Below, in pieces: positions 7,992-39,252 of a stretch of 64,000 bases of DNA. Source of the DNA: Candidatus Eiseniibacteriota bacterium (GTDB lineage: Bacteria; Eisenbacteria; RBG-16-71-46). The first letter of the stretch is position 1. Each line of letters opens with the position of its first letter. The stretch is taken from NCBI GenBank assembly GCA_963717505.1, contig OY970342.1, forward strand, positions 96,001 to 160,000. The letters are read 5' to 3'. Below the pieces are notes generated by a model that was given only the letters and a program-made list of their open reading frames with translations, was not told the origin of the DNA and made no database searches. Made by a program: the position numbers and the translations under genes.

Positions 7992-8554
7992 TCTCGAACC
8001 CGATCCTGGCGGCCACGCTTCGTCGCAACTGGCCTCTGGTCGGCGCCGTCGGTTTCTTCGCGCTGTTCATGCTGGTGCACCAGCTCGCGTTCCAGCCGGC
8101 CGCGAAGCGTTATCAGAAGGCGGTTCAGCAGGCTTCGGATCTGGGCTTGCCGCTCGACCTTTCGCGCGCCCCCGCGCTGGTTCCGCCCCGAGTCCTGGCG
8201 ATGGTGGTCGACAACGCACTATCGCCGGCGGAGGCGCAGCGGCAGGGCGCTTCGGGCCAACTGACCGCCCAACTGCTCGAGGGGGTGACCCGAACGGTGG
8301 ATGACCAAGGGCTCGATGTACTCGCGACTCAGCCGGGTGCGGTGATCCAGCAGCCGAAGTACGTCCAGGTTCGCGCCTACGTCAAGGCTCGCGGCCGATA
8401 CTCCCAGGTCGTGGCCCTCATGAACGCGCTGGCGACCGGGCGCCAGCTCATCGGCGTCGACCGGTTCGCGCTGCTCCCCGAAGACGGCGGTCGCGTTCAG
8501 CTCGACCTCTGGGTCAGCCGGCTCATCCTCAAGCAGGAGCGACGCAAGACATGA
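7982..8554 (+). CDS. pilO: PilO/GspM-like alignment protein
   Basis: N-terminal TM, ARGRYSQVVALMNAL ferredoxin-like motif; operon position. Confidence 0.72.
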   Translation: MPLISNPILAATLRRNWPLVGAVGFFALFMLVHQLAFQPAAKRYQKAVQQASDLGLPLDLSRAPALVPPRVLAMVVDNALSPAEAQRQGASGQLTAQLLEGVTRTVDDQGLDVLATQPGAVIQQPKYVQVRAYVKARGRYSQVVALMNALATGRQLIGVDRFALLPEDGGRVQLDLWVSRLILKQERRKT

Positions 8555-9039
8555 AGCTCGATGCTCGTATGGTGGTGGCGCCGCTGGTCGGCGTGACGGT
8601 GCTGGTGCTGGTGGTGCAGCAGACGCTGGGCGCACTGCGCGCCTCCGGCTCGTGGACGCCGTCGAACAACACCCCGGTGATTCGCCCGGAAAGCCCCTAC
8701 GGGCGACTCGACCGCATGCTGGCCCAGCGGCCGGCGCCCGCGGCGACGTCGATGCGCGATCCGTTCGGGTACCCTGTGGTCGCCGTTGTCCCCACGCCCC
8801 GCCCGTCGAAGAACGCCGGGCCGCCCAAGCCGGTCGAGCCTTCGCGCCCGACCCTGACCAGTGTGATTTACGAAACCGGGGATGCGCGCGCCACGATTCA
8901 GTTCGAAGGCCGTGATTTCACGGTTCGGGAGAACAGCCTCTTTGCCGATTTTACGGTCGTGAGCATTCGGCCCGGCGAGGTCGTCGTGCAACGCGACGGC
9001 CAGCAGACGGTCCTCAGGCTCGCGCGGAAAGGAGAATAA
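8551..9039 (+). CDS. PilP/GspC-like protein
   Basis: TM anchor, RDPF motif, Pro-rich linker, beta domain LTSVIY...VVSIRPGEVVV; directly before the secretin. Confidence 0.68.
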   Translation: MKLDARMVVAPLVGVTVLVLVVQQTLGALRASGSWTPSNNTPVIRPESPYGRLDRMLAQRPAPAATSMRDPFGYPVVAVVPTPRPSKNAGPPKPVEPSRPTLTSVIYETGDARATIQFEGRDFTVRENSLFADFTVVSIRPGEVVVQRDGQQTVLRLARKGE

Positions 9040-18756: not shown

Positions 18757-18923
18757 TCGGGTCGCACGTCCGACAACGAATCGGCCGAGCTCGGCCGCCG
18801 GCCGGTAACTTGCCGGCTCCAGACCTCACCGGCGTGCAATCTGCCGGGTGACCAACCGCCACTTCGGGGGTCCACCCCACCGCAAGTCGCGCAGTCACAA
18901 CGTCTCGTCGGAAATGCCATGCG

Positions 18924-18940
18924 AGGCCCGCATCTTGCAT
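18924..18940 (+). promoter_or_regulatory. Putative sigma54 promoter for the coiled-coil gene
   Basis: AGGCCCGCATCTTGCAT matches GGCAC-N5-TTGCA with exact GG-N10-GC spacing; palindromic boxes lie 80-120 nt upstream. Confidence 0.55.
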
Positions 18941-19054
18941 GACCCCTCGGCTCCAAACCCCTTCCCGCTCCTCGCCGATGGCAGGAGCGTTCACCTCATC
19001 GCGCGGCTGAACTCGGTCCCATGGCCCAGGGCGGCGCGTCCGGAGGAGCGTACG

Positions 19055-21733
19055 ATGCTCAAGAATCTGCTCGGGAATGGCTCCAAGGAAGTCGCCGAGG
19101 AGGCGCGCGCAATCCTGCAGGAAATCCGAAAGGAGCGCGATCGCTACGAAGCGCTGGTCGAAAGCGCACGCTCCGCGAGCGAGCGCCTGCAGGAACTCGG
19201 AGAGCCATTGGCTCAGGCGGTGAAAGAAGCCGACGCCGTGAGCGGGCGGATCAGCGAACTGGAGCAGCGCTTCGCCGCGATGGTGCAGGTGTCGCGTCAG
19301 TTCGAGACCCTCGACGAACGCGCCGAGATCCTCAAGCAGGATCAGGAGCGCGCCGAGACGCAGATCCACTCGGTCCTCGAGGACGCCCAGCAGATCAAGA
19401 ACGGGTTCGAAGAGACCCACATCAAGATCGACCAGGCGCTCGACCTCAAGGAGCGTCTCGAGTCCTTCATGGAGATCGAGAAGCCGTTCCAGCTGATCCG
19501 CGGCGAAGCCGAATCGATCCGCAGTCAGGTCGAAGGCACCGGCGAGCATCTGGCCCGGCTGCGCGAGCAGCACGAGCGCCTGATGGACGCGCACAAGCTG
19601 GCGGTCTCCAAGATGGAGGCCCTCGACCGTCGCGGTGAAGACCTCGGCCGTGCGCTCCAGGACAAGGAACGCCGGGTCACCGGCGTCGAGCAATCGGTCC
19701 AGGGAATCGACGGCATCCAGCAGACGGTCAACGACCTGCGTCGCGAGATCGGCACGCTCAAGGCCCTCGGCGACTCGGTCACCCAGAAGAGCGCGGCCCT
19801 CGAGGCGCAGCACGAGGCGATCGAGCGCGCCCTGACCCGCGCGGACAACTTGGACCGGGCGATGCGCCGCATCGACACCGGCCTGCAGCAAGCCCAGGAG
19901 CAGGAGAAACTTCTGGGCCAGATGCACGACCGGGTGCTCGGACTCCAGTCGCTCCACGAGTCGGTGCTCGAACGCTCGCGCGAGATCGATCAGCTCCAGC
20001 GCGAAACGGACGGCCAGGTGGTTTCGACCCGGCAGGATCTCGCCGCGATGCGCAACGAGATGAAGAACACGGTCGGGCACTTCGAGTTCGAGACCAAGGG
20101 CCTGGAATCGGTCAGCCAGCGGGTCGCCGACCTGCGCACCGCGCTCGGCGACTTCGAGGAGCGTTTCCGCAATCTGAACGAGTCGGCACAGACGGTCGCC
20201 ACCCTCACCGGCCAGACACAATCCGTTTCCGTGCGCCTGCAGACGCTGACCGACGAGCTGGCTCATGTCGGCGAGGAGGCTGGCAAGCTCCAGGGTATCC
20301 GCCGCGACGTCGAGGACATGAGCCGCACCGTGCGCGAGGCCGCGGGCCACGTGACGCGTATCGAGGAGTCGCGTCCAGCGGTCGAGTCCGCCCTGCGGGA
20401 CCTCGGCCAGCTCGGCAGCGTGCACGCCATGGTCCAGGACGCGCTCGAGCAAACGCGACTCGCCGACGGCGAGATCGCCCGTGTGCGCGAAGCCCAGAAC
20501 GAGACCCGGAACTGGCTCAACGGGATCGATCAGTCGGTGCGGGACGTGCGCGACCAGGTGCAAGACCTGCGACAGATGGCGCCGACCGTCGAGGCCGTAC
20601 TCAAGCAGGCGCAGCGGGCGAGCGAGGCCATGGCCGTGGTCGAGCAGCGCCGGGGCGTCGTCGAAGACGTTCAGCGCCGCATGTCGGACATCGAGCACCT
20701 GGGCAGCGCGCTCGACGACCGCAGCCAGCAGTTGGGGGCGCGGATGGAGGCGGCCGAGCGCCAGTTCGTGACGCTCGAGTCGCACGCCCAGGAAGCGGAT
20801 CGACTGGCCCAGGCGATCGCCGGCATCTCGAACGGAGTCGAGGAGGCGTTGCGCCGGGCGGAGAAGGCCGGCAAGCAGGTCACGACCGTCGAGTCGCGCT
20901 GCGAGTCGGTCGAAGGGCTCGCCGACCGGACCCGCGCGCTCAAGGAGGAGCTGGATCAGCGCCAGCGTGCGCTCGAGTCGGCGGCCGAAGACCTCAAGCG
21001 CTCCTCGAAACTGCGCCAGGAGGCCGCCGCCGCGGCCCAGGAACTGGACGAGTTGTCGAAGGGGCTGACCTCCTCACTCGCCTCATCCGACGAGCGCGCC
21101 GAGCGGTTGGAGTCCCTGACCGCCCAGCTCGAGGATCGAGGCGCCAACCTGACGCACGTCGAGAAGCGGCTGGATGCGTTCGAAGAGCGTCTGGTCAAAT
21201 GGGAGTTGGTGGATCAGGAGGTCACCCGGTCGCTCGAGCAGATCTCGGCGCGGCAGGGCACGGTCGAGTCGCTTTCGGCCGACCTCGAACGGATGTTCGC
21301 CACGGCCGAGAAGACCGCCTCGGACGTCCGCATGATCACGTCGTCGCAGCGCGAAATCGGCGAAACCCACCGCCAGCTGGAAGACGTCATGACCCGGCTG
21401 CGCGAGGTCCGCGAGACCGCGACCGCGCTCGACGAACGCAAGCGTCAGATGACCCGGGCCGAGGAGCGGCTCGCCCGCGCCGACGCCCTGTTGGTCGAGG
21501 TTCGCTCCAGCCTCGAGTCGCTGCAAGGTCAGAAGGCGGTGGTCGATCAGGCGATCGAGAAGGCCGGCTCGCTCAAGGTCCTGCTCAAGCAGGCCGAGGC
21601 GGTGATCGAGAGCCTGCGTGATGAGCGCAAGATGACCGCTGACATCCGAGCCGCTGTGGCACTCGTCCGCGAGGAAGACGACTACGGGGACGACGACTAC
21701 GAGGACAACGAGAAGCTGGCGAAAGCGGCCTGA
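19055..21733 (+). CDS. Large cytoplasmic coiled-coil protein (892 aa), function unknown
   Basis: RBS GGAGGAG before MLKNLLG; continuous E/R/L/A/Q-rich heptads; no TM or Walker motif; acidic tail ending AKAA. Confidence 0.85.
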   Translation: MLKNLLGNGSKEVAEEARAILQEIRKERDRYEALVESARSASERLQELGEPLAQAVKEADAVSGRISELEQRFAAMVQVSRQFETLDERAEILKQDQERAETQIHSVLEDAQQIKNGFEETHIKIDQALDLKERLESFMEIEKPFQLIRGEAESIRSQVEGTGEHLARLREQHERLMDAHKLAVSKMEALDRRGEDLGRALQDKERRVTGVEQSVQGIDGIQQTVNDLRREIGTLKALGDSVTQKSAALEAQHEAIERALTRADNLDRAMRRIDTGLQQAQEQEKLLGQMHDRVLGLQSLHESVLERSREIDQLQRETDGQVVSTRQDLAAMRNEMKNTVGHFEFETKGLESVSQRVADLRTALGDFEERFRNLNESAQTVATLTGQTQSVSVRLQTLTDELAHVGEEAGKLQGIRRDVEDMSRTVREAAGHVTRIEESRPAVESALRDLGQLGSVHAMVQDALEQTRLADGEIARVREAQNETRNWLNGIDQSVRDVRDQVQDLRQMAPTVEAVLKQAQRASEAMAVVEQRRGVVEDVQRRMSDIEHLGSALDDRSQQLGARMEAAERQFVTLESHAQEADRLAQAIAGISNGVEEALRRAEKAGKQVTTVESRCESVEGLADRTRALKEELDQRQRALESAAEDLKRSSKLRQEAAAAAQELDELSKGLTSSLASSDERAERLESLTAQLEDRGANLTHVEKRLDAFEERLVKWELVDQEVTRSLEQISARQGTVESLSADLERMFATAEKTASDVRMITSSQREIGETHRQLEDVMTRLREVRETATALDERKRQMTRAEERLARADALLVEVRSSLESLQGQKAVVDQAIEKAGSLKVLLKQAEAVIESLRDERKMTADIRAAVALVREEDDYGDDDYEDNEKLAKAA

Positions 21734-21756: not shown

Positions 21757-21786
21757 CGAAGGCGGCCTGATTCTAGGCCGCCTTCG
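21757..21786. terminator. Perfect 12-bp hairpin between convergent genes
   Basis: CGAAGGCGGCCT-GATTCT-AGGCCGCCTTCG; pyrimidine-rich tract follows on the minus strand. Confidence 0.65.
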
Positions 21787-22291
21787 CGTCGTCCGGGCGA
21801 TCGAGGAGCCAGTCGGCGGCGCTCAGGGACCAGACCAGCAGATCGTCCACGTCGAGCGGCAGCCGGATGTCCTCACCGATGATTCGCTCCTCGGAGCCAA
21901 AGCGGAACATCCCGCGCTTCCAGCGCATAGCCGCCAGGATGACGTGGCGCTGAACCAGGAGCATCGCCTCGCGCATCTGGGCTTCGGTCAGCACATCATT
22001 GTCGACCAGCATTCGGCCGATTCGGGCTCCCGGGCTGTCCTGCTGGATCGCGAGCACGAACTCGATGGCCTCGGGCGGGAGTTCCCCGCGCCGCACCAGG
22101 ATTTCTCCGATCCGAAGCGCGCTGACGTTGGTCCGGGCGAACATGGACCGGCCGTCCTCGACGTAGATCTCGGTGCGCTGGTCGCCCCGCTCGAGCTGCA
22201 GACAACCCGTGGCCCGGCTGGATTGCAGGAACCGGAGGACCTGAGCCAAACCGAAGTAGGCGAGCGATCCGGACAGGACTTGCGTAGCCAT
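21773..22291 (-). CDS. DUF4388 (PATAN-like) domain protein with internal MshEN-like motif
   Basis: LSGSLAYFGLAQVLRFLQSSRATGCL...W..G.F.F; RIGEILVRRG...RIGRMLV. Confidence 0.85.
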   Translation of the reverse strand: MATQVLSGSLAYFGLAQVLRFLQSSRATGCLQLERGDQRTEIYVEDGRSMFARTNVSALRIGEILVRRGELPPEAIEFVLAIQQDSPGARIGRMLVDNDVLTEAQMREAMLLVQRHVILAAMRWKRGMFRFGSEERIIGEDIRLPLDVDDLLVWSLSAADWLLDRPDDAKAA

Positions 22292-22470
22292 CGAGAGTTC
22301 CTCGAGCGCGGTGGGGAATGCGACTGTCTTCCCGGGAGGAATCGGCAGATTGCCCCATGGTCTGGAGAGGTTTCCCCCTCGGGCGCGAGCTTCCACAAGG
22401 TGTGGCACAGTGTGCGGGCCCCGGCGATCTTCCGGGGCGTAGCACCGCGGATCCGGCTTCTGGAGGCCCC

Positions 22471-23286
22471 ATGACCACCGAGAAGGACTATGTCCTCGGC
22501 ACCCACGACGCCGAGCTCTGGCGCTTGGGCCTGCAACACCGAATTTGGCGTCCACGCGCCACCGACGCGTGGAGACGCGCAGGGTTCACGCTCGGCCAGA
22601 CGCTGCTCGACGTCGGCTGTGGTCCAGGGTACGCCACGCTCGATCTGGCGGAGTGGGTCGGTACCTCGGGGCGCGTGATCGCCCTCGATCGGTCGCGGCG
22701 TTTTCTCGACGCGCTCGCCGACCGCGCCCGCGCTCGTGGGTTCGACAACTTCACGGTCCACGAGCTGGACTTCGACGAGCAGCCCTTCCCCGACGTTCGA
22801 GCCGACGGCGCCTGGTCGCGATGGATCTATGCGTTCGTGCGCCATCCGCGCCGGCTCCTGGAACGGGTGGCCGCGACCCTGCGGCCGGGCGGAACGATGG
22901 TGTTCCACGAATATGTCGACTACCGCGCGTGGCGGCTGTCGCCCCGCAGCCCGCTATTCGAGGCGTTCGTCGAGGAAGTCATCGCGTCGTGGCGCGCGAG
23001 CGGCGGCGAGCCCGACATCGGTCTCGACCTGCCGCGCTGGCTCGAGGAGTTGGGCTTCGAGTTGCGCGAGCTGAGGCCGATCACCGAAGTCGCCCGTCCG
23101 GGCGACGATTTATGGCACTGGCCGAGGATCTTCGTCGAGATCGGCCTCCAGCGCCTGGTCGACCTCGGCCGCATCGACGCGGCCCGAGCGCGCGACATGC
23201 ACCATGCGTTCATCGACACCGGGACGACCCTCGGCGGCTTCTGCCTGACTCCCACCGTACTCGAGATTATCGCGCGCAAGCGCTGA
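22471..23286 (+). CDS. Class I SAM-dependent methyltransferase
   Basis: YVLG N-terminus, LLDVGCGPG, LRPGG; RBS GGAGG. Confidence 0.9.
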   Translation: MTTEKDYVLGTHDAELWRLGLQHRIWRPRATDAWRRAGFTLGQTLLDVGCGPGYATLDLAEWVGTSGRVIALDRSRRFLDALADRARARGFDNFTVHELDFDEQPFPDVRADGAWSRWIYAFVRHPRRLLERVAATLRPGGTMVFHEYVDYRAWRLSPRSPLFEAFVEEVIASWRASGGEPDIGLDLPRWLEELGFELRELRPITEVARPGDDLWHWPRIFVEIGLQRLVDLGRIDAARARDMHHAFIDTGTTLGGFCLTPTVLEIIARKR

Positions 23287-25022: not shown

Positions 25023-25916
25023 CTACCGTGGATTCACGGGCCGCACCACGGTGATCCCGATGTTCGACTGCGGCCCGCGCGCCAAATAGTCGCTGATCCG
25101 GCCATCGACCATCACGCGCCGGTTCTTGGACGAGGCGTGTACGAAACGGGCCACTCCGGCCTCGTCCAGCACCACGAGTCCGGTGTGCGAGTAGTCGAGG
25201 CCGCGGATCGAGGTCGCGATCGCCACCAGATCGCCGGTATGGAGCTTCGACTCGATGCCCGCGACCCGCGACCGAGGCACGTACAGGCGCGGAACGCGGC
25301 TCACGCGCTTCTCGATCTCGCGTATGGCGGGAACCATCGCCGGATCCGTTTGCAGCGCGGGATAGCTCTGCGGATGCGTCGACATGAAGTCGAGCGAAAG
25401 CGGCAACGTGACGCCTCCGAGCCCCAGGGTGACATCCTCGACCACCCCCTTGGCGATGTTGTCCGCGATCCATTCCGAGGTGTAGTGGAGCCGCGACGCA
25501 TAGCCTTCGATACGCCCCCGGCGATAGCGCGTCTTGGTGATCGCGGCCTCGAGGTCCGCGGCACCGGGCCTCGAGCCACCCGGGCGAACGATCCGCCCGA
25601 GGTTCAGGCACAGCTCCATGAACGTGACGCAGTCGTACCCGCGCGTCGTGATGCGGCAGACTTCGGGGCCCGGACCCTCGAGCGTGCCTTCGAGGTACGG
25701 CGCGCCGGCGAGCGCGCGCGCGAAACGACCGACTCGTTCGCCGATCGCGAGCGACTCCCACCGGTTCGCGAAGCCGACCTCGATCAGGCTGTCGAGATCG
25801 GCCCGCGTCTGGGGCGTCACGGCCTGCGCGGCCGTCGGATCGGGCGCAGTCGGCTCGGATTGAGCGTGAGCGCCGCCCACCGCGATCGCGACCGCGAGCC
25901 AGACGAAGCGTTTCAT
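25023..25916 (-). CDS. DUF1460 N-acetylmuramoyl-L-alanine amidase-like protein (NlpC/P60 superfamily)
   Basis: Signal peptide, PY...DCVTF, RY..G...Y.SRLHY.SEW, SHTG, HASS. Confidence 0.88.
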   Translation of the reverse strand: MKRFVWLAVAIAVGGAHAQSEPTAPDPTAAQAVTPQTRADLDSLIEVGFANRWESLAIGERVGRFARALAGAPYLEGTLEGPGPEVCRITTRGYDCVTFMELCLNLGRIVRPGGSRPGAADLEAAITKTRYRRGRIEGYASRLHYTSEWIADNIAKGVVEDVTLGLGGVTLPLSLDFMSTHPQSYPALQTDPAMVPAIREIEKRVSRVPRLYVPRSRVAGIESKLHTGDLVAIATSIRGLDYSHTGLVVLDEAGVARFVHASSKNRRVMVDGRISDYLARGPQSNIGITVVRPVNPR

Positions 25917-27175
25917 GGCGTGGGCGGCGCGGGGGTCCGCGCGGCCGGCACGACGTCGGCGACTGCGATCGCCGGCGGAACCGCCGCCGCGAACTCGGTA
26001 ACCGGCGCGCCACTGGCCGCCGGAGCAAAACGCAGGTGGCGTGTGTCGGGCAGCGTGAACGCCAGCGCCAAACCGACCACCAGTGCGCTCGCGAGCGCAC
26101 CCATCGCGACCGTGACGCTGGTGGCGTCGGCCAGAGCCCCGATCGGCGTCATCAGCAGCATCGACACGCCCCATGCCGCGCCCATGATCAAGCTCGACAC
26201 CGTCGAGACGTGACGCGGGGCCAGCTCCTGGCCCATGACCACCATGACCGGCAGCGACATCTGGAGCAGGAAACCGCCGACCACCACTGAAGCCAGGCCG
26301 AGCATGTCGGGCAGGAACAGGAATGCGAAGTAGAACGGGATCGCCCCCGCGAGCGAGACGATCACGACATTGCGCCGCCCGATTCGGTCCGAGAGCCAGC
26401 CACCGAAGAACGTACCGATGGCGCCCGCGGTCAGATAGGCGCTCACCGCCAGTCCGCCGAACTCGAACGCGTGGCCGCGGCGGCTCAAGTAGATGGGCAG
26501 GAACGTCATGAAGCCGTAGCTCGCGGCATATCGGCACACGGTCGTGAAGTAGAGCGTCGCGATGTGGCCCGCGACCGGCGCCAGCTCGCGCAAAGGCGCG
26601 CGCGGCATGGCGTGGTGCTCGAGGGGTGGCATGCGCGAGAACCAGAGTGCGAGCGGAATCGTGACCGCGATGCCGCTGATCCCCCAGATCCAGGTGCGCT
26701 CGAGACCGAGCACGCTCGCGAACATCACCGCGATCAAGGGACCGACCGAGAACCCGACCGTGCCCCCTCCGACGAAAATCGACATCGCGAGTCCGCGACG
26801 CGGCAGCAAGGTGCTCGCCGCCACCGCAGCCTGCGGGTGGAACGCGGCGACCCCGACTCCCCCGAGGATCAGCAGTGCCACCAGCGTCCAGTAGTTGGGA
26901 GCAAGACCGACGCCACACAGGAACACGGCGGCAACCAGCGGCCCGAAAGCCACGAACCACGGGCGGCGGAGGCGATCGGCCCACAACCCGAACAACGGCT
27001 GGGCGAGCGAGGAGGACAGCGACGAGAAGGCGACCACTGAGCCCACCAGCGTCAAGTTCAGCCCGAGCTTCTCGATCAACAGCGGATAGAGCGGGGCGAT
27101 GAAACTGGAGCAGCTGTCGATGACGAAGTGCGCAAGCGCGATCAGCGCCAGGCGCGGAGTCAGGAAGCGACGCAC
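25913..27175 (-). CDS. MFS transporter, Fsr-like
   Basis: About 12 TMs, AHFVID, QPLFGLWADR, AAFHP, GGWLSDRIGRR. Confidence 0.9.
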   Translation of the reverse strand: MRRFLTPRLALIALAHFVIDSCSSFIAPLYPLLIEKLGLNLTLVGSVVAFSSLSSSLAQPLFGLWADRLRRPWFVAFGPLVAAVFLCGVGLAPNYWTLVALLILGGVGVAAFHPQAAVAASTLLPRRGLAMSIFVGGGTVGFSVGPLIAVMFASVLGLERTWIWGISGIAVTIPLALWFSRMPPLEHHAMPRAPLRELAPVAGHIATLYFTTVCRYAASYGFMTFLPIYLSRRGHAFEFGGLAVSAYLTAGAIGTFFGGWLSDRIGRRNVVIVSLAGAIPFYFAFLFLPDMLGLASVVVGGFLLQMSLPVMVVMGQELAPRHVSTVSSLIMGAAWGVSMLLMTPIGALADATSVTVAMGALASALVVGLALAFTLPDTRHLRFAPAASGAPVTEFAAAVPPAIAVADVVPAARTPAPPTP

Positions 27176-27271
27176 CGGCGCAGAGTAGCACGCCGCGCAG
27201 CGTGCCGCGGGCCCGCGGCCGATTTCGGACCCGCCCAGGAGCGTCGGGTTTATTACGCGAGGCCGGAGACG

Positions 27272-28465
27272 CTAGAGCTTGGCGAACTCCACGCGCCGGT
27301 TCATCGCGCGTCCCTCGGGCTTGGCGTTGCTGGCGACGGTCTGCGTGTCGCCCATGCCGTCGGTTTCGAAGCGATCGCCGGCGACTGAGAACTGCTCGGT
27401 CAGCACCTTGGCCACCGATGCCGAGCGGCGCTTCGACAGGTCGAGATTGCTGGCGGCCGATCCGACGTTGTCGGTATGGCCGGTGATCTTGAGCTTTACG
27501 GCGGCGTTCGATTCCATGTAGGAGGCGATCTGACGCAGGACGGGCGCAGATTCCGGCAGCACGACGTCGGAGCCGCTGTCGAAATAGATGCCGTAGGTGA
27601 CCAACTTGCCCTCCGCGAGCAGGTCTTTGGGCGGCCGGCAGCCCTCGGCGAAGCGCACGTTGGCGATCATGGGTTCCGCCGGCGAGAACATGCGCATCTC
27701 GAGGTCGGTCGGCATCCCATTCGTTGTCGAGATCTCGGGGACGTTCGCCATGCGCTGGCGGTCGACGTAGGCCTTCACTCCGGTTCCGCGGACCATGATC
27801 TTGATGTGATGATGGCCGGCGACCCCCTCGGGGTCCTCGAGTGGGGTCGACGAGTAGACATCGCCCGACCGAAACACCATGTCGTTTCCCTGGGGGAACA
27901 ACACTTCCCAACACAGTGCATCACTGGCGTTCAGCGCTCGAACGTTGACCATGGTGCCCAGGCTCGGGCCGTTGGCGTACACGTCGAAATCGAGCGTCCA
28001 GAACTCGGGGAGCGGCCCCGCCCCCGTGGCCTTCATACGCACACGACCGTCGGGACTCGTGCAGCGCAGCCAGCGCATGCCCTCGGCGTCGACGATCTCG
28101 TAGTTGCCCTGCTTGAGCTTCCAGCGCGTAGGGAATTCACCCAGCTCGTCCAGCGTGAAGTCCTCCATCAACAGGACCTTGTCTCCCGGCACGTAGTCGA
28201 ACTTGGTCGAGATCGACGAGAACTTACCCTTGCCCTTTTCGGCGGGAGCCTTCTCTGCTTCGGCCTCCGCGGCATCGGCCTTCTTGTCGCCCGTGGACTT
28301 GCCGGTCTGGTCCACGGTCTTGTCGATCGTGTCCTCGGCCTTCTTGGTCGACTTGTCGGTGACCTTCTTCTTGACGGCATCGAGGATGCCGGCGCGGCTT
28401 CCGGATGCGATCAGCACGAATGCGATCACGATGCCCGCCAGCGCGGTCCATCGAGCGTGCTTCAT
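27272..28465 (-). CDS. Exported OmpA-family protein with central beta domain
   Basis: Signal peptide, FDYVPGDK...GEFP..W, C-terminal GIYFDSGS, GHTD, NLDLSKRR, NRRVEF; RBS GGGAGG. Confidence 0.9.
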   Translation of the reverse strand: MKHARWTALAGIVIAFVLIASGSRAGILDAVKKKVTDKSTKKAEDTIDKTVDQTGKSTGDKKADAAEAEAEKAPAEKGKGKFSSISTKFDYVPGDKVLLMEDFTLDELGEFPTRWKLKQGNYEIVDAEGMRWLRCTSPDGRVRMKATGAGPLPEFWTLDFDVYANGPSLGTMVNVRALNASDALCWEVLFPQGNDMVFRSGDVYSSTPLEDPEGVAGHHHIKIMVRGTGVKAYVDRQRMANVPEISTTNGMPTDLEMRMFSPAEPMIANVRFAEGCRPPKDLLAEGKLVTYGIYFDSGSDVVLPESAPVLRQIASYMESNAAVKLKITGHTDNVGSAASNLDLSKRRSASVAKVLTEQFSVAGDRFETDGMGDTQTVASNAKPEGRAMNRRVEFAKL

Positions 28466-28529
28466 GGCTGCCTCCCGTGCGTGACGGCCAGACGACCGCC
28501 GTTGTTGAACATACTGTCCGGTGCCGCCG

Positions 28530-28554
28530 GACCCCACATCAGGGTCGTGGTTCC
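28530..28554 (-). promoter_or_regulatory. Putative ECF sigma promoter upstream of the OmpA gene
   Basis: GGAAC-N17-GTC on the minus strand, the sigmaE-type spacing, about 65 nt before the ATG. Confidence 0.45.
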
Positions 28555-28699
28555 GTCGGTGACCGGGAGGGGGCCCAGAGTGTCGGCCAGAATAGCTCGC
28601 CCGGCAACTCCTGAGACGATCGAGAAGCCGGTTCGTCAGCCGTGTTAGGCTGGCCGTCCCCTGCGCCTGCTCCCGCGCTACTCGAGGACTCGTCGCGTC

Positions 28700-31456
28700 T
28701 TGAGCCGCCAAACCTTTCGCCACCCGAGCTTCCAGCGAAACATCGTGTTGCTCGCCGCCGCGCTCGTCGTTTCTGCCGGCGCCGTGGAGGCGCAGAATCG
28801 GTCACTGGCGACCCGCCGACCCGATGGCTCCCGCGAATGGCCGGTCGATCGCTGGCTGGACCGCTTCTCGCCCGCTGGCGATGCGGCCTGGCGCCGATCC
28901 CAGGCCGTGGGCTCGGCGTTCGTCGACTCGCTGCTGCGCATCGCGCGCGCCACCGGCGACCGTACGCTGGCCACGGCTGCCCACGCCTGGCGCGGACGCA
29001 AGTACGCGAACGACTACGAGCTGCCGAGGGGCGAAGCGGATCTCGACACCGCGTGGACGCTGGCAGCCGCGTTGCGCGACAGCGCAGGGCTCTGCCGAAC
29101 TCTGGCCGCCCGCGCGCATGGCGCCAACGTGCGTGGCCAGTACGACGTCGCCAGGACCCAGTTCGAACGGCTGCTTCCCATGGCCACCGCCGCCGGCCTG
29201 CCCGACGTCGTGGGTTTCACCCATCGCGCTCTCGGGTTCCTCGACAAGGAAGACGGTCGCTATGATGACGCTCGTCGCCACCTGCGCGCCGCCATCCGGT
29301 TGATCCCCCCGGACCGATTCGAGAACCGGCACTCGCGCTTCCTGCTCGCCGAAGTCGAGAACCGCACCGGGAACCACGACGCGGCGCGAGACACGTTCCT
29401 GGTGATCCTCGACGAAGCCCGGCGCCGAAAGGATCGCTGGCTCGAATCCGCGGTGCTCAACGACCTCGGCATCCTCGAGTACGAAGGCGGCGACATGGCG
29501 ACCGCCGACCGCTACTGGGAATACGCGGCCAGCGTCTTCGACAGCACCCGGAACGCTTCGAGCGCGCTCTCGTCGCGCACCAATCGGGCGCAGGCCTTGC
29601 GCGAGCTGGGTCGGGTCGATGAAGCGCGTGCGCTGCTCGACCGTTTGCTCCGCGACTCCGATGCGATCGACTTTGCGCCGGCCCGGGTTTCGGTCTACGG
29701 CGAGCTGGCCAGCCTCAATCGGGGCATTGGTCGCTACGGCGAGGCGGAGCGGCTGTATCGCGCGGTGCGCGCGTCGGCGGTCGACGATGCGATGGAAGAA
29801 GAGTCGGCCTCGATCGAGCTGGCCGGCCTGCTCACGGCTACCGGTCGCCCTGCCGAGGCCGAAGCGCTGATGGACTCGCTGCTGGTGCCCGAGCGTCGCG
29901 CGCGGATGACCCGCGCCAATCTGTGCGCCGCGTGGAGCGCTCGCTCGGCCGCCCGTCGCGCGCAGGGCCGGGCCCAGGACGCGATCGCCGAAGCGCGGGC
30001 CGCCGAGTGGAACGCCCGCGCCGACCGCGAGGTCAACATCTACTACTTCGAGACCGCCCTCGAGCTGGCGCGCTGCCACCGGGCGCTGGGCTCGCCCGAC
30101 AGCGCGGTCGCCGTGCTGCGTCGGGCGACGGGCACGTGGGAGAAGTGGCGGGCGTCGATCTCGGACCTCGAATGGCGCGAGCGACAAGGGTCCGGACTCG
30201 CCGGCTTGTTCGCTGAGTACGGACTGTCGCTGCTCGACTCGCGGCGTCGCGCCCCGGAGTCGCGCCGGGTCTCGGAGGCGTTCGACGCGCTCCAGACCTT
30301 CCAGGCGCGAACCCTCGAGGAACGCATGCAGGGCCGCGGTCTCGCCGGCGCCGGCATGCGCCGGCGCGTCACCGCGGATTCGCTGCGCCGCGGCGTGCTC
30401 GCCGACGGCGAGCTGCTGGTCGACCTGGTGGCGACTCCCGACACCACGTTCGCGTTCCTGGTTTCGCGCGCCGGCTTGAGCGTACGCATGCTCCCGGGAA
30501 CCGTGCGCCTCGAGCGCCTGCACGCCGCGTGGCGCGAGGCGACGCTGTCAGGCGCCGACGACCCAGTGGTCCGATCCGGACTGCGGCGGTTGTCGGACGA
30601 GATGCTGGGGCCACTGGCGCCGTCGGTGGGGTCGAGTCAACGTGTGATCGTCAGCGGCGGCGGGCCTTTGTCGCTGTGGCCGCTCGCCGCGCTCAACCTG
30701 CCGGGCGAGAGCGCACCCTGGGCCGACACGCGCGACATCTCGACTGTGCCGTCCGCGACGCTGCTCGCGGCGCTTCACGGACGCGCGGGTGCGTCCGCGA
30801 CCCCCGGGCTGTTGGCGCTCGGGCGCACCACCGACGCCCAGGGCCGCAACCTGCCGGGCGCCGAGCGCGAGCTCAAGACACTGGGAGCCGAATACACCCC
30901 CGTCGAAGTCCGCGCGAACCGCGGTGAGCGACCGGTGCCCGAGCTGGTCGCCGATCTGCCGAACTGGGATTTGTTGCACTTCGCCGCTCATGCCGAAGCG
31001 GTCGCCGGCAGCCCGTGGCGTTCCGGTTTCCTGCTCGGCCGTGGCGCCGGCGACGACGCCTACCTACGCGCTTCGACGGTGGCGGGAATGAGCCTGCGCG
31101 CCCGACTCGCCGTGCTCTCGGGATGCCAGTCGGCGGGCGCAACCACGCTGGCGGGCGAAGGCGCGTTGGGGCTAGCCAGCGCGTTCCTGTGCTCGGGAGC
31201 GTCGAGCGTGGTCGCCACCCTGTGGCCGATCGAGGATCGCGTGGCCGAGCGCTTCATGGACGAGTTCTACTCCGCCCTCTCCCGCGGCCGCACGGTGGCC
31301 GGCGCGGTCGGCGACGCGCAGCGACGACTGCGCGAGACGGGCGATACCGCGCAGGTGCGCGACTGGGCGGCATTTGTGGCCTCCGGATCGGGCGGAACCC
31401 GGGTGCAGCTCACTCCGCGCCTGACGCCGGGGGCCAAGGATCGTCCAACCCGATGA
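28700..31456 (+). CDS. Secreted TPR-repeat plus CHAT (caspase-like) protease
   Basis: Hydrophobic signal ending AVEA|Q; TPR helices; LPGAERE, LHFAAH (His about 30989), VLSGCQS (Cys about 31124), GEGALGLASAF, VVATLWPIED, WAAF. Confidence 0.92.
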   Translation: MSRQTFRHPSFQRNIVLLAAALVVSAGAVEAQNRSLATRRPDGSREWPVDRWLDRFSPAGDAAWRRSQAVGSAFVDSLLRIARATGDRTLATAAHAWRGRKYANDYELPRGEADLDTAWTLAAALRDSAGLCRTLAARAHGANVRGQYDVARTQFERLLPMATAAGLPDVVGFTHRALGFLDKEDGRYDDARRHLRAAIRLIPPDRFENRHSRFLLAEVENRTGNHDAARDTFLVILDEARRRKDRWLESAVLNDLGILEYEGGDMATADRYWEYAASVFDSTRNASSALSSRTNRAQALRELGRVDEARALLDRLLRDSDAIDFAPARVSVYGELASLNRGIGRYGEAERLYRAVRASAVDDAMEEESASIELAGLLTATGRPAEAEALMDSLLVPERRARMTRANLCAAWSARSAARRAQGRAQDAIAEARAAEWNARADREVNIYYFETALELARCHRALGSPDSAVAVLRRATGTWEKWRASISDLEWRERQGSGLAGLFAEYGLSLLDSRRRAPESRRVSEAFDALQTFQARTLEERMQGRGLAGAGMRRRVTADSLRRGVLADGELLVDLVATPDTTFAFLVSRAGLSVRMLPGTVRLERLHAAWREATLSGADDPVVRSGLRRLSDEMLGPLAPSVGSSQRVIVSGGGPLSLWPLAALNLPGESAPWADTRDISTVPSATLLAALHGRAGASATPGLLALGRTTDAQGRNLPGAERELKTLGAEYTPVEVRANRGERPVPELVADLPNWDLLHFAAHAEAVAGSPWRSGFLLGRGAGDDAYLRASTVAGMSLRARLAVLSGCQSAGATTLAGEGALGLASAFLCSGASSVVATLWPIEDRVAERFMDEFYSALSRGRTVAGAVGDAQRRLRETGDTAQVRDWAAFVASGSGGTRVQLTPRLTPGAKDRPTR

Positions 31457-32040
31457 CCACGCATGCGCGGGAGGAGATTCCCGATGACGAACTGCTGCGC
31501 CAATACCGCCAGGCTCCGGACGACCCTGCCGGACGCCGCGCCGCGGGTGAGCTGCTCGGTCGGTATCGAGGACGGGTCTACACCTGGTGCTATCGTGTGG
31601 TCGGGAATCAAGAGTGGGCGCTCGATCTGGCGCAGGATGCACTGCTCAAGGCGTGGCGCGCACTGCCCGGCTTCGGCGGCCGCAGCCGATTCTCCTCGTG
31701 GCTGTTCGCGATCGCGCGCAACGAATGCCTCACCGCCATCCGGCCCAAGAGCTTGACCCGTGACCCGAGCGTGGATCCGGTCGAAGTGCTGATCGAGCAC
31801 GAAGACCCACCGGCGGTGCTTGCGACTCGTGAGGAAGAGGAAGCGATGGAGAGCTTGTTCCGCGAGTGTCTGAATCCGGTCGAGCAGGAGGCGATCTGGC
31901 TGCGCTGTTTCGAGCGCCTGCCGGTCGCCGACGTCACGCGTTTGCTCGGACTCACGCACGCCTCGGGAGCGCGGAGCGTGTTGCAGAGCGCGCGGGAAAA
32001 GCTGCGCGCCGCGTGGGCGCGAAGGAGGGCCGAGTCGTGA
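31453..32040 (+). CDS. ECF-type RNA polymerase sigma factor
   Basis: Region 2 DLAQDALLKAW...FSSWLFAIARN; region 4 LNPVEQEAIWLR...; ATGA overlap with the CHAT gene. Confidence 0.92.
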   Translation: MTTHAREEIPDDELLRQYRQAPDDPAGRRAAGELLGRYRGRVYTWCYRVVGNQEWALDLAQDALLKAWRALPGFGGRSRFSSWLFAIARNECLTAIRPKSLTRDPSVDPVEVLIEHEDPPAVLATREEEEAMESLFRECLNPVEQEAIWLRCFERLPVADVTRLLGLTHASGARSVLQSAREKLRAAWARRRAES

Positions 32041-32756
32041 CCGACCGGCGGTTCGAACCCGACGATCTCGCCGAGCTGGCCGGACTCGCACCCGGCGATC
32101 CGCGTCGTCAGGCGCTCGAGTCCGATGCGCGTCTGCGCGCCCGCGTGCGAGCGCTCGAAGACTTCGAGAATCCCGGTGCCATCCCCGAGGGCGCGCGCGT
32201 CGCCGACGCCGAAGCTCGTCTGGCGGAAACCCTCGAACGGGAGCTGGGTGTGCCAGTGGCAAGGGCCGAGAGACCGGCATCGGAGCGCGTTCCAGTGTCG
32301 GAAATGGAATGGCGTCGTCGTGCGCCGGCCGGGCGGCGTCGGGGATTTCTGGGACCGCTGTGGGTTCCCTCCCTCGCCGCCGCCGCCGTGCTGCTGGTGG
32401 TCGCCGGCGCGTGGTTCATGGTTTCGACGAGGCAGCCCCAGTCGCCGATCATGCGCGGAACGACCCCTGGTCCGACGGGAGCACTCGTCGGCTCGACGAC
32501 GCCGATTGCGCGCGGCGTGCGCCTGGAGTGGACTGCGCACCCCGAAGCACAGACCTACGTGATCACGATCCTGGCACCCGATCTCACCGAAATCCTTGCG
32601 CTGGGTCCGGTGACCGAAACCCACGTCGACCTCGCGTTCGGCGCTCTGAACGAAACCCAGGCGCCCGAGGGACAAGTGCTGTGGCGCGTTCGGGCGATTC
32701 GCGGCGATGACGAAGTCGGGCGCTCGGAGACGATGACCCTCGAGCTTCCGCGCTGA
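32037..32756 (+). CDS. Putative single-TM anti-sigma factor with periplasmic FN3/Ig-like domain
   Basis: GTGA overlap with the sigma gene; cytoplasmic helical N-terminus, TM LWVPSLAAAAVLLVVAGAWF, IMRG linker, beta domain LEW...YVITI...WRVRA. Confidence 0.72.
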   Translation: MTDRRFEPDDLAELAGLAPGDPRRQALESDARLRARVRALEDFENPGAIPEGARVADAEARLAETLERELGVPVARAERPASERVPVSEMEWRRRAPAGRRRGFLGPLWVPSLAAAAVLLVVAGAWFMVSTRQPQSPIMRGTTPGPTGALVGSTTPIARGVRLEWTAHPEAQTYVITILAPDLTEILALGPVTETHVDLAFGALNETQAPEGQVLWRVRAIRGDDEVGRSETMTLELPR

Positions 32757-32793: not shown

Positions 32794-33639
32794 CTAGAGC
32801 CGGGCCGAGTTGAAGGTGTCGCCCTGCGACAGGTCGCCGGTTTCGAAGCCGCGCCGGAACCAGCGAATCCGCTGCTCCGACGTTCCATGGGTGAAGGCGT
32901 CGGGAACCACCGTCCCCTGCGTGCGCCTCTGCAGGTTGTCGTCCCCGATCGCGCTCGCCGCGTTGAGGGCCTCCTCGACGTCGCCCGATTCGAGGATCGG
33001 CCGCATCTTCTCGGTGTGGTGCGCCCACATCCCGGCGAGGAAGTCAGCCTGAAGCTCGAGGCGCACTGAGAGCTGGTTGTACTCGACCTCGCTCAACCGG
33101 CCGCGCATCTCGGCCATCTGTTGCGTGATGCCGAGCAGGTTCTGCACGTGATGGCCGACTTCGTGCGCGATCACGTACGCCTGCGCGAAGTCTCCCGGTG
33201 CGCCGAGCTGGTCGCGCATGACGCCGAAGAAAGACAGGTCGATGTAGACCTTGGAGTCCGACGGGCAATAGAAGGGCCCGACCGCCGCGCCGGCCATGCC
33301 GCACGCCGATTCCACGCGATCGGAGAACAGCACCAGGCTGGGCTCGACGTACTGGCGGCCCTGTCGCGCGAACTCGGCGTTCCAGACATCCTCGGTTTCG
33401 GCCAGAATGGTCGACGTGAACGCCGCCAGCTCGTCCTGAGCCGGGTCGGGCGCGGTCTGGGACGGCGCCGACGTGTCGAGTTGCTGCATTTGCTGGAGGA
33501 GCGCGCGCGGGTCGGCGCCGAACAGCAGTGCCACCAGCAGGATGATCAGGCCGGCGCCGCCGCCGAGAATCACGCCGCCGGCCGGGCGCCCCCGGCGGTC
33601 TTCGACGTTTTCGCTCTGACGTCTGCCTTGCCAGCGCAT
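32794..33639 (-). CDS. ypfJ: Neutral zinc metallopeptidase, YpfJ family
   Basis: MRW.GRR.S.NVEDRR, GPFYCP, AHEVGHHVQ, ELQAD, FTHGTSEQR. Confidence 0.92.
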   Translation of the reverse strand: MRWQGRRQSENVEDRRGRPAGGVILGGGAGLIILLVALLFGADPRALLQQMQQLDTSAPSQTAPDPAQDELAAFTSTILAETEDVWNAEFARQGRQYVEPSLVLFSDRVESACGMAGAAVGPFYCPSDSKVYIDLSFFGVMRDQLGAPGDFAQAYVIAHEVGHHVQNLLGITQQMAEMRGRLSEVEYNQLSVRLELQADFLAGMWAHHTEKMRPILESGDVEEALNAASAIGDDNLQRRTQGTVVPDAFTHGTSEQRIRWFRRGFETGDLSQGDTFNSARL

Positions 33640-33708
33640 GGACGCTCCATTGAGAACCGGGATTGTCGGAGTCCACGGGGAAAACACCCGACCGCGACTC
33701 GATCGCGC

Positions 33709-37292: not shown

Positions 37293-38069
37293 TCAGGACC
37301 CGGGGCGAACCGCCGTCGCGAGCTGGGTCTCGAACGCGGCACGGCGGGTGCGCGACAGACGCACCCGGCTGCCGTCCGCCAGCACCAGCTCGCGATCGCC
37401 GCGGAACAGCGGGTGGATCTCGCGCACGCGATCGAGTCGGATGATCGTCGAGCGGTGCACCCGGAAGAACTGCACCGGGTCGAGGCGCTGCTCGAGCTCG
37501 TTCATGGTTTCGCGCAGCAGGTGCGATTCCCCGCCGACGTGGATCACCGCGTAGTAGTCCGCCGCCTCGATCCAGTCGATGGTGTCCACGTCGATCACGC
37601 GGGTGCGGTCGCGCTCGCGCACCAGAATCCGTCGCGTCCGCCGCGAGTGCTCGCGCAGGAGCGCGGCCAGATTCGGATCGGCCGGTTCGCCGCCGCGGCG
37701 CAGGCGCACCAGCTCCTTGCCACGAGCGAGCGCCCGAGCGAATCGCTCGTCGGCGATCGGCTTCAGCACGTAGTCGACGGCGTGGACTTCGAAGGCTCGC
37801 AGCGCGTGCTCGGAGTATGCGGTGACGAAGATGACGACCGGGGCCCGGTCGATTCCCAGTTCCTCGAGCAGGTCGAAGCCGTCGACCTCGGGCATCTGGA
37901 CGTCGAGGAACATGAGGTCGGGGCGGGTGCGCTCGACCACGGCGGCGCCGTCCACTCCGCTGCACTCGCCGACCACCTCGACCTCGGGATCGCCCTCGAG
38001 CAGCAGGCGGATGGCCTGCCGGGCGAGCGGCTCGTCGTCGACGATCATCACGCGCAGCCGTTCGCTCAT
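37293..38069 (-). CDS. LytTR-family response regulator
   Basis: IVDDEPLAR, FLDVQMP, FVTAY, YVLKP; C-terminal FFRVHRS...LSR. Confidence 0.95.
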   Translation of the reverse strand: MSERLRVMIVDDEPLARQAIRLLLEGDPEVEVVGECSGVDGAAVVERTRPDLMFLDVQMPEVDGFDLLEELGIDRAPVVIFVTAYSEHALRAFEVHAVDYVLKPIADERFARALARGKELVRLRRGGEPADPNLAALLREHSRRTRRILVRERDRTRVIDVDTIDWIEAADYYAVIHVGGESHLLRETMNELEQRLDPVQFFRVHRSTIIRLDRVREIHPLFRGDRELVLADGSRVRLSRTRRAAFETQLATAVRPGS

Positions 38070-39128
38070 GACACCTCACGAAAGGGCAGCGAGACTCGGG
38101 CCAAAACTCCGCCATTGGATTCCGAAAGCTCGAGTCGTCCCCGGTCCCCGTAGAGCTCGGCCAGACGCGCCACCGTGGTCGAGAGCCCGATGCCGTTTCG
38201 GCGGATGGCGTCGAGTCGTCCGGTGTTGAAGATCTCGATCACCAGATTCTCCCCCTCCCGCGCCGAACGAATCGTGATCTTGCCCGGCGCCTCCGCTGCG
38301 CGCGATCCCGTGACGCACGGCGTTCTCGGCCAGCGGTTGGAGCAGCAGCACCGGCATGGCGCCGTGCAGCGTCTCCGGGGCCATCGCCATGTCCACGGTC
38401 ATCCGGTCGGCGAAGCGAATGCGCTGGATCTCGAGGTAGAGCCCGACCGTGCGGGCCTCCTCTTCGAGCGCAACAGTCGCGCCGCCGCGCTCGAGGGCGT
38501 AGCGCAGCAGGTCCGAGAGCCCGGCGATCATCGAGAGCGCCTGCGGATTCTGGCCCGCGCGGACCAAGGCGCCGATCCCGTTCAGCGTGTTGAACAGGAA
38601 GTGCGGCTGGGTCTGAAGCTCGAGCGCCGTCAGGCGCGCCTGCGCCAGCGACGCCTCGAGTTGCGCCGCCCTGCGATCGCGCTCACGCTCGAGCTGCGCC
38701 GCCCGATCGGCGTAATGCGCCAGCACAACCAGACCATAGAGGACCAGTTCGAGCGGCATCTGATAGATCGTGATCGACCTGAAGCGATGCGCGAAGTCGG
38801 TGGGGTTCATCGAATCGTAGGGCACGAGCAGGAACTCGGCCGAAACCCACAGCGTGGTGTGAATGAACGCGAACCCGACGGCCATTGCGAGGTGGAGCAG
38901 GAGCGCTCCGACCCGGGGTGGAGCCAGCGGCACGCGGTGAACGAGCCACACGATCGCGAGCGTGAATGGAATCCATACGCCCCAGACCAGCACCTGACAG
39001 GTGATGACGCGCGCCCACGAGTGGTGGTGCGAGAGCATGCTGATCTGAATTTGAAACGCGGAGATGACCCCGAACAGCATCCAGAAACCGACGATGACCA
39101 GGCGCCGCGCGGTCGCGTGGGAGATCAT
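38066..39128 (-). CDS. LytS/YehU-family sensor histidine kinase, frameshifted near 38293
   Basis: TMs, QPHFLFNTLN, LQPLAENAVRHG; removing one base restores KITIR...NGIGL...LYG, ending at a stop that overlaps the LytTR ATG. Confidence 0.85.
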
Positions 39129-39252
39129 CCGCCGATGATGCCGCTCGAGGGCAACCCACCGCCAGGCGTTGCGGTCAACGGTGTCCTGGGTGCAGCGAAT
39201 CGGACCGGAGTCGGCGGGCAACCCCATGGGCGCGGCGACGAGGCCGCGCCGC

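Follow-up and report, generated by a model that had tools for sequence, protein, structure and literature searches.

The DNA analysed here, hereafter the window, comprises 64,000 nucleotides of contig OY970342.1 (positions 96,001 to 160,000, forward strand) from assembly GCA_963717505.1 of a Candidatus Eiseniibacteriota bacterium. It contains three consecutive genes encoding a TPR-CHAT protein, a sigma factor of the extracytoplasmic function (ECF) type and a putative single-pass anti-sigma factor, which a first-pass annotation had proposed to be a transmembrane signalling system in which the TPR-CHAT protein is an exported protease that cuts the anti-sigma factor. This interpretation is supported as far as computation goes, and cleavage is a prediction. 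The three genes and the adjoining divergent gene are listed below in window positions.

27272-28465, minus strand: OmpA-family protein gene (397 amino acids; Pfam OmpA 2e-20, residues 294-390)
28466-28699, no strand: divergent intergenic region between the start codons of the CHAT and OmpA-like genes
28700-31456, plus strand: CHAT gene (918 amino acids, TTG start)
31453-32040, plus strand: ECF sigma gene (195 amino acids, ATG start at 31453)
32037-32756, plus strand: anti-sigma gene (239 amino acids, GTG start at 32037)

The sigma start lies on the CHAT stop codon in an ATGA overlap, and the anti-sigma start lies on the sigma stop codon in a GTGA overlap. The GC content at third codon positions (GC3) is 0.75-0.85 in all three reading frames, as expected of real genes in a window of 67% GC overall (63-71% across 2-kb windows). 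Coordinates and starts bear out the coupling of the three genes read earlier from their overlaps, and the motifs HFAAH, LSGCQS and PQSPIMRG sit at the positions previously given for them. The module is bounded by the divergent OmpA-family gene and by a convergent zinc-peptidase gene (32794-33687, minus strand), and the intergenic region at 28466-28699 is presumed to hold the promoters of both the CHAT operon and the OmpA-like gene. By its profile matches, the second gene product is an ECF (group IV) sigma factor, with Sigma70_r2 of Pfam at 8.5e-19 (67.6 bits against a cut-off of 24) and TIGR02937 sigma70-ECF of NCBIfam over residues 30-186 (76.1 bits against a cut-off of 42.9). Taken by itself, Sigma70_r4_2 gives a weak match (E 0.061, under cut-off), and all NCBIfam equivalog models fall under cut-off for this protein.

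The features of the CHAT protein are as follows.

28700-28792, plus strand: predicted Sec signal peptide (residues 1-31, cleavage between AVEA and Q, read by eye)
28841-30325, plus strand: TPR/helical-repeat solenoid (residues 48-542; helix pairs in the AlphaFold2 model and Pfam TPR matches)
30581-31390, plus strand: CHAT (caspase-like) domain (residues 628-897, PF12770)
30977-30991, plus strand: HFAAH motif (His760 and His764, candidate catalytic His residues)
31124-31126, plus strand: Cys809 in LSGCQS, candidate catalytic nucleophile

The match to the Pfam CHAT family PF12770 (1.8e-48) extends over profile positions 4-289 of 289, and the TPR families TPR_12, TPR_19, TPR_14, TPR_16 and TPR_2 were also found in the protein. 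The AlphaFold2 model (mean predicted local distance difference test score (pLDDT) 85.7; predicted template modelling score (pTM) 0.79) consists of the helical solenoid followed by an alpha/beta domain, and was matched by Foldseek in the PDB to human separase (1.5e-13), Csx29 of craspase (9.5e-13) and DdvA (4.8e-12), the top whole-length TM-scores of 0.47-0.49 being to DdvA. A PDB sequence search with the CHAT profile gave separase weakly (3e-3) and otherwise TPR proteins only, DdvA being unmatched at sequence level. The solenoid is presumed to be a sensor or scaffold.

Orthologues of the CHAT protein were collected by a word-based search, which returned 41 full-length sequences at 47-100% identity before a sharp fall to 34%. 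Both Cys809 and His760 are conserved in all 41, which speaks for catalysis, and together with the Pfam matches this upholds the TPR repeats and His/Cys dyad noticed in the first reading. His764 (30989-30991) is present in 35 of the 41, with Glu in the other six (P0179, P0183, P0184, P0185, P0187 and P0188), where HFAAETE replaces HFAAHAE and Cys809 is retained in every case; either His760 is therefore the base, or that subclade does not cut. The spacing from His764 to Cys809 is 45 residues, the same as in the DdvA dyad H862-C907. The N-terminus, read by eye, combines three Arg with a hydrophobic core of 15 residues and with AVEA before Q, as the signal peptide claimed for it would require, and an uncharged hydrophobic 11-mer occurs within the first 50 residues in 38 of 41 orthologues; the remaining three begin in or near the conserved region and appear truncated. 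From these sequence features the CHAT protein would be exported to the periplasm, and it is predicted to be an exported caspase-like (clan CD) cysteine protease.

The third protein is divided as follows.

32037-32246, plus strand: cytoplasmic helical N-domain (residues 1-70; helices 8-15, 22-28, 31-44 and 55-70, pLDDT about 90)
32364-32426, plus strand: transmembrane helix (residues 110-130, helix in the model)
32436-32459, plus strand: PQSPIMRG in the juxtamembrane linker
32445-32459, plus strand: PIMRG motif (residues 137-141), with the candidate cut between R140 and G141 at 32454-32459
32490-32744, plus strand: periplasmic FN3-like beta-sandwich (residues 152-236, pLDDT above 90)

No Pfam or NCBIfam family matched this protein. 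Its AlphaFold2 model (mean pLDDT 80.8) has a disordered stretch between the helices of the N-domain (8-70) and helix 110-130, and the linker at 131-150, which holds the Arg-Gly pair, is of low confidence and has no secondary structure. The 19 residues preceding the membrane helix include seven Arg and the 20 following it two, so that the N-domain should be cytoplasmic and the predicted topology is N-in, C-out. Compared with the PDB by Foldseek, the beta-sandwich resembles FN3 domains (37 matches at E<=1e-3; for example 4wtw, E 3.6e-4, TMt 0.61), and a PDB sequence search with the anti-sigma profile gave FN3 hints only (E 0.16-0.8) and no anti-sigma domain. Model, Foldseek and Arg bias therefore agree with the earlier description of a cytoplasmic N-domain, one transmembrane segment, an exposed linker and an FN3-like domain.

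Relatives of the third protein are numerous. A profile search of 1.84 billion representatives gave 4453 matches at E<=1e-3, 1204 at E<=1e-10 and 289 clusters at E<=1e-30, mostly proteins of 220-245 amino acids aligned end to end, the nearest clusters being labelled Acidobacteriota and Myxococcota; the word-based search found 11 relatives. The alignment used below holds 151 of 156 proteins, with three repeat proteins (1932-2625 amino acids) and two fragments (102 and 173 amino acids) left out. In 82 of the 151 aligned relatives, Hx3Cx2C, the zinc motif of class I anti-sigma factors, stands at the aligned N-terminal place, where the window protein has R5, A26, D30 and L33 at positions occupied in most relatives by C, H, C and C. 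Its N-domain is thus putatively an anti-sigma domain that has lost all four zinc ligands. As Pfam zf-HC2 matched 0 of 62 family members at E<=0.01, the zinc motif of the family is a pattern count alone. Of the class I (ZAS) features the window protein lacks Hx3Cx2C and has the helical N-domain, the single transmembrane helix and the position next to a sigma gene, a likeness of architecture only. Position, architecture and the zinc motif of its relatives identify it as an anti-sigma factor, and its N-domain would bind the sigma factor. No match was obtained when a plasmid collection was searched by tblastn with a zinc-motif member of the family.

Linker motif and predicted CHAT:anti-sigma complex

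Conservation of the juxtamembrane Arg-Gly pair had been set as a test of the cleavage proposal, and the pair proved strongly conserved: 151 of the 151 aligned anti-sigma relatives have Arg140 and 132 have Gly141, Leu, Met or Val stands at position 139 in 145, and the flanking linker positions are variable. An invariant Arg followed by a small residue resembles the sites cut by clan CD proteases, of which separase, metacaspases, gingipain R and clostripain cleave after Arg or Lys.

The complex of the two proteins was predicted from mature CHAT (residues 33-918, 41-row alignment) and the anti-sigma segment 130-239 (62-row alignment). It scored 0.78 (three runs: 0.78, 0.79 and 0.78), against 0.01 for the best of three controls; of the solved complexes 116 of 157 reach the 0.78 mark, as do 2 of 215 mismatched pairs, a calibration that is rough here since own alignments were used. 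Between runs at least 96% of the contacts agree, and the pLDDT of the partner is at least 78. On the anti-sigma side the confident interface consists of residues 137-143 (PIMRGTT) and four patches of the FN3 domain, and on the CHAT side of residues 340-348, 607-630, 712-721, 762-767 (adjoining the His motif), 778, 807-810 (S-G-C-Q) and 840-849. All 25 of the 25 lowest-error pairs link the FN3 domain to CHAT 607-630, and by elimination the linker motif would be what touches the catalytic region. The prediction supports binding, short of showing it, and the complex proposed by the first-pass annotation came through its controls with the Arg-Gly segment, the catalytic Cys and neighbours of the His motif all in the interface lists. 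Acidic residues of the interface are also conserved (D712 in 39 of 41 orthologues, E766 in 40, Glu or Asp at position 845 in 41, the window having E845, and D846 in 41), and with D712, E766, E845 and D846 the catalytic region would therefore be suited to Arg at P1.

Conservation of the interface was compared with that of random residue sets. The anti-sigma interface has a conservation of 0.51 against 0.43 elsewhere, equalled by 913 of 10000 random sets (not significant), and CHAT 607-630 has 0.68 against 0.67 overall, equalled by 4834 of 10000 (not significant). The whole CHAT interface is significantly conserved (1 of 10000), driven by the active-site residues.

The predicted complex fits equally well if the two proteins bind without cutting, with the linker occupying the CHAT site as a pseudosubstrate in the manner of securin in separase, or with the CHAT protein shielding the anti-sigma factor. 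In a first variant the anti-sigma factor would keep the protease inactive until a signal frees it for other envelope substrates; in a second, the CHAT protein would shield the anti-sigma factor from a general site-1/site-2 protease, as RseB shields RseA, and its release would start the cascade. Both precedents, securin in separase and RseB on RseA, are established, the fold matches of the CHAT model include separase-securin structures, and the Glu that replaces His764 in six of 41 orthologues, with the rest of the site kept, suggests that binding may be the conserved function. Set against this, the presence of Cys809 and His760 in every orthologue points to catalysis, and the invariant Arg with its small neighbour resembles a cleavage site of the clan; binding without cutting is accordingly considered unlikely.

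Gene order in related genomes

When 185,579 species genomes were scanned with the 11-member anti-sigma alignment, 220 stretches fitted its one pattern and none of them was a relative. In a scan with two peptide patterns taken from CHAT only, 111 candidate stretches yielded nine confirmed loci, namely four orthologous loci, four distant ones and one 1.7-kb contig without context. The orthologous loci (L001-L004), from one uncultured bacterium and three Candidatus Eisenbacteria metagenome-assembled genomes, encode CHAT proteins 53-67% identical to that of the window, and two of the three Eisenbacteria loci are nearly identical to each other. In all four, each with usable context, the order CHAT, sigma, anti-sigma is the same and Arg-Gly is retained (anti-sigma profile 7.7e-56 to 2.2e-74; sigma 1.4e-71 to 2.1e-95). 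The same three genes in the same order at 4 of 4 orthologous loci are more than chance would give, and the three-gene synteny on which the first-pass annotation had staked its proposal is thereby found. The nearest relatives of the CHAT protein (86%) and of the anti-sigma factor (76%) each lie on a metagenome contig of 41,444 bases and, judging by this equal length only, appear to share one contig.

Flanking genes vary between lineages, the OmpA-like gene excepted. An orthologue of it (E about 1e-132) adjoins the module in four of five loci including the window, none being present in L001; in the window it is divergent and upstream, and in the other three it follows the anti-sigma gene directly, on that gene's strand:

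L002, 8999-10207: OmpA-like orthologue
L003, within 7554-8915: OmpA-like orthologue
L004, 7838-9040: OmpA-like orthologue

The protein carries an anchor at its N-terminus and an OmpA peptidoglycan-binding domain at its C-terminus; for the middle domain there is a weak concanavalin/LamG-like lead (Atlas, 0.92; a lead only). Its gene may be a fourth member of the module or one of its outputs. Two other flanking genes were observed: a sigma-54-dependent activator with TPR repeats stands directly upstream of CHAT in the Eisenbacteria loci L002 (212-2716) and L004 (1274-3694) and is absent from the window, and a SNF2-family helicase gene lies just past the module in L001 (10965-14468, minus strand) and L004 (9252-12839, plus strand), as residual synteny between these genomes.

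The four distant loci, whose CHAT proteins are 28-34% identical, belong to Solibacteraceae and Bryobacter (Acidobacteriota), and their modules lie as follows.

L005, 4184-8110: acidobacterial module
L006, 4184-8110 (same coordinates): acidobacterial module
L007, 4413-8935: acidobacterial module
L008, 4252-8989: acidobacterial module

All four have the order single-pass Hx3Cx2C protein, conserved unknown protein (229-274 amino acids), TPR-CHAT protein with a hydrophobic N-terminus, and an ECF-like sigma factor heads the module in two of them. The Hx3Cx2C protein matches zf-HC2 in L008 (2.3e-7) and, under cut-off, in L005 (1.8e-3) and L006 (1.6e-3); in L007 the motif was read by eye. With the window anti-sigma profile these proteins come next-best (E 0.003-0.08), in alignments that reach little beyond the membrane helix. 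The conserved unknown protein has no family match and no counterpart in the window. An anti-sigma-like gene therefore adjoins CHAT in eight of the eight loci with usable context, all of which were found through CHAT alone. The conserved OmpA-like gene and the related acidobacterial modules are additions to what was noted earlier for this locus.

The OmpA-like gene bears on an explanation in which the CHAT protein is an output and not a regulator: CHAT and OmpA-like proteins would belong to the sigma regulon, and the anti-sigma factor would sense through its FN3 domain and be processed by general proteases. ECF operons are commonly autoregulated and often include output genes, and the place of the OmpA-like gene after the anti-sigma gene, on its strand, in L002-L004 fits such an arrangement. 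The authors of the ECF classification state that regulators and targets are indistinguishable by context alone (PMC7826278). The CHAT protein as a mere output is made less likely by a complex prediction far above its controls and by the occurrence of CHAT beside anti-sigma-like genes in a second phylum, in a different gene order; the invariant Arg-Gly in a disordered linker also argues against it, and this explanation is judged distinctly improbable.

Proposed mechanism and related systems

On balance, it is considered probable that the locus is a three-gene, possibly four-gene, transmembrane signalling module in which the CHAT protein acts as site-1 protease on the anti-sigma factor. The TPR-CHAT protein would be exported to the periplasm, and the N-terminal helical domain of the anti-sigma factor would hold the ECF sigma factor at the inner membrane face, with the disordered linker and the FN3-like domain exposed on the outer face. 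The FN3 domain would dock on CHAT just before the catalytic domain, and the caspase-like active site would receive the linker motif P-x-[LM]-R-G. Upon a signal, presumably sensed via the TPR solenoid, Cys809 would cut the linker, most likely after Arg140, and so remove the FN3 domain (site-1 cleavage); a membrane site-2 protease would then cut the remaining stub, and the freed sigma factor would redirect RNA polymerase to a regulon of which the adjacent OmpA-like gene may be one output.

Literature joining CHAT with anti-sigma or ECF factors was found in the DdvA papers, the Csx29 paper, a preprint on type III-B CHAT and the ECF54 review. The nearest likeness is to DdvA-DdvS of Myxococcus xanthus (PDB 8ROT/8RW5), which shares an ECF sigma factor and single-pass anti-sigma factor, a periplasmic TPR-CHAT (export being predicted here) with its His/Cys dyad, and a flexible linker next to the membrane as the proposed target of CHAT. 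According to the DdvA work, one protomer's CHAT site faces the other's juxtamembrane linker and is proposed to cut it in trans before RseP acts, DdvA without its TPR-CHAT undergoes RseP-dependent degradation, and DdvA-DdvS controls a CBASS-CRISPR island (PMC11506125). In the window, by contrast, the TPR-CHAT protein is separate, the anti-sigma factor has a small FN3-like domain and no zinc motif, and no defence island is present. Membership of the DdvA type was rejected, the anti-sigma factor with its transmembrane helix and the TPR-CHAT being on separate genes, and the first-pass view of the protease as a separate exported protein accords with its own gene and signal sequence. By analogy, the module is best read as a split, in-trans form of the self-cleavage proposed for DdvA. 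The DdvA authors sought fused forms only, which they report from Myxococcota and one Comamonas (PMC11506125). When longer proteins were searched for a fusion of this anti-sigma factor with CHAT, the 11 matches were all of Ig/FN3 type and none carried CHAT, which is weak evidence. In the literature searched, no account was found of a TPR-CHAT protein that is separate, exported and paired with an FN3 anti-sigma factor, and subscription journals or the ECF classification spreadsheets may contain one; for a periplasmic TPR-CHAT the DdvA structure paper was the only match found.

Other systems are related in part. Craspase (Cas7-11/gRAMP, Csx29, Csx30 and an ECF-like sigma factor; type III-E) likewise sets a TPR-CHAT protease against a sigma-holding protein, but is cytoplasmic, RNA-guided and bound to a Cas effector, whereas here there is no CRISPR, export is predicted and the target would be a membrane protein; membership of Csx29 was rejected (NF041237 at 16.6 bits against a cut-off of 300, no CRISPR repeats, no Cas match among the 27 proteins scanned). 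Separase, with securin or cohesin SCC1, shares the helical-repeat solenoid followed by a caspase-like domain and cuts after Arg, but is eukaryotic, nuclear or cytoplasmic, much larger and unrelated in function. Classical regulated intramembrane proteolysis (RseA/DegS/RseP; RsiW/PrsW/RasP) similarly has a site-1 step that removes the outer domain and a site-2 cut in the membrane, but the site-1 protease proposed here is a clan CD cysteine protease of the same operon and not a serine protease or metalloprotease encoded elsewhere. ECF54 of Actinobacteria also has a conserved TPR-CHAT gene near an ECF sigma gene, for which proteolytic control has been proposed (PMC8999054, PMC7826278); the review of the group gives no anti-sigma factor and places CHAT, subtilase and carboxypeptidase-regulatory-like genes nearby (PMC8999054). 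None of the 18 scanned window neighbours belongs to the subtilase or carboxypeptidase-regulatory-like families, and membership of ECF54 was rejected on context and lineage, an anti-sigma factor being present and the nearest relatives being Candidatus Eisenbacteria metagenome-assembled genomes. In the supplementary group descriptions of the 2021 ECF classification, CHAT is named under ECF54 (PMC7826278).

The absence of CRISPR or defence genes nearby, remarked upon earlier, was confirmed for the window by agreeing repeat, Rfam and PADLOC searches. The window has no spaced direct repeats, no Rfam family and two short tandem repeats only; PADLOC, run on 27 proteins at 13.6-48.3 kb, gave partial-coverage matches only, on four proteins, and no Cas match. 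A CRISPR array or defence island in the window was rejected on these grounds. The likeness to DdvA-DdvS nevertheless allows a phage-defence switch, in which a periplasmic phage component would be sensed and defence genes elsewhere in the genome turned on. One of the partial PADLOC matches is that of the CHAT domain to the model BovA (2.6e-9), and only a subset of DdvA-like pairs adjoin known defence genes (PMC11506125). As no CRISPR array and no complete defence system was found in the window or among the genes examined in L001, L002 and L004, and as the gene conserved beside the module encodes an envelope protein (OmpA-like), suggesting a response of the envelope, a defence role is judged very unlikely. 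Such a role is a matter of the output and could coexist with the proposed mechanism.

Several points weigh against cleavage of the anti-sigma factor by the CHAT protein. The Glu at position 764 in six of 41 orthologues may mark a non-cutting subclade. In the model, contact of the linker with Cys and His is deduced by elimination from residue lists, a peptide predicted in the active site could be a pseudosubstrate as readily as a substrate, and the solved separase-substrate and Csx29-Csx30 structures may have guided the predictor in the peptide-in-site part; conservation lends no independent support to the docking surface. The invariant Arg could serve another protease or role, there being 289 anti-sigma clusters against 41 CHAT orthologues, the latter from a less sensitive search. 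DdvA is itself an unproven precedent, its dyad mutants being like wild type and no autocleavage having been observed upon phage infection (PMC11506125). Finally, the search for an ECF-type promoter common to all lineages came out negative: upstream of CHAT in the window and L001-L004, and of the OmpA-like gene in the window, no -35/-10 pair common to more than three of the five lineage groups was found, those that did turn up being GC-rich words at inconsistent positions.

In the same upstream regions, a GTGCTAYYCTC word (GCGCTACTCG in the window, 28672-28685) recurs in all five loci ahead of the start of CHAT, its distance varying (about 50-75 bases in L001, L002, L003 and L004), and may be a -10-like element.

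Site-1 cleavage by the CHAT protein, if it occurs, would mean that the few known site-1 proteases include a caspase-like cysteine protease, and would tie periplasmic signalling to the separase/craspase protease family outside CRISPR and defence. Membrane signalling to ECF sigma factors is understood in few systems, and the site-1 protease is usually the missing step. With separate proteins, a defined candidate site between Arg140 and Gly141 and a predicted docking mode, the proposal is testable with two purified proteins and point mutants. A wider extension, under which the whole FN3 anti-sigma family with the invariant Arg is gated by exported CHAT proteases that cut after it, is regarded as doubtful; if true, it would represent a widespread periplasmic caspase-type site-1 pathway, of which the fused DdvA and the acidobacterial operons would be variants.

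Other genes of the window

A 961-amino-acid coiled-coil protein (18848-21733, plus strand), whose gene is adjoined by that of a DUF4388 protein (21773-22555, minus strand), has weak partial matches to LmuB, JetC and DruC (best 1.9e-15); these SMC-like defence matches probably reflect the coiled coil only. An open reading frame of 963 amino acids (25023-27914, minus strand) overlaps the MFS transporter gene at 25913-27175 (minus strand) in another frame and is probably a spurious long reading frame typical of high-GC DNA. A two-component pair consisting of a LytTR response regulator and a His_kinase (PF06580) protein is encoded 4.5 kb downstream of the module (37293-39227, minus strand), and is not conserved near the module elsewhere.

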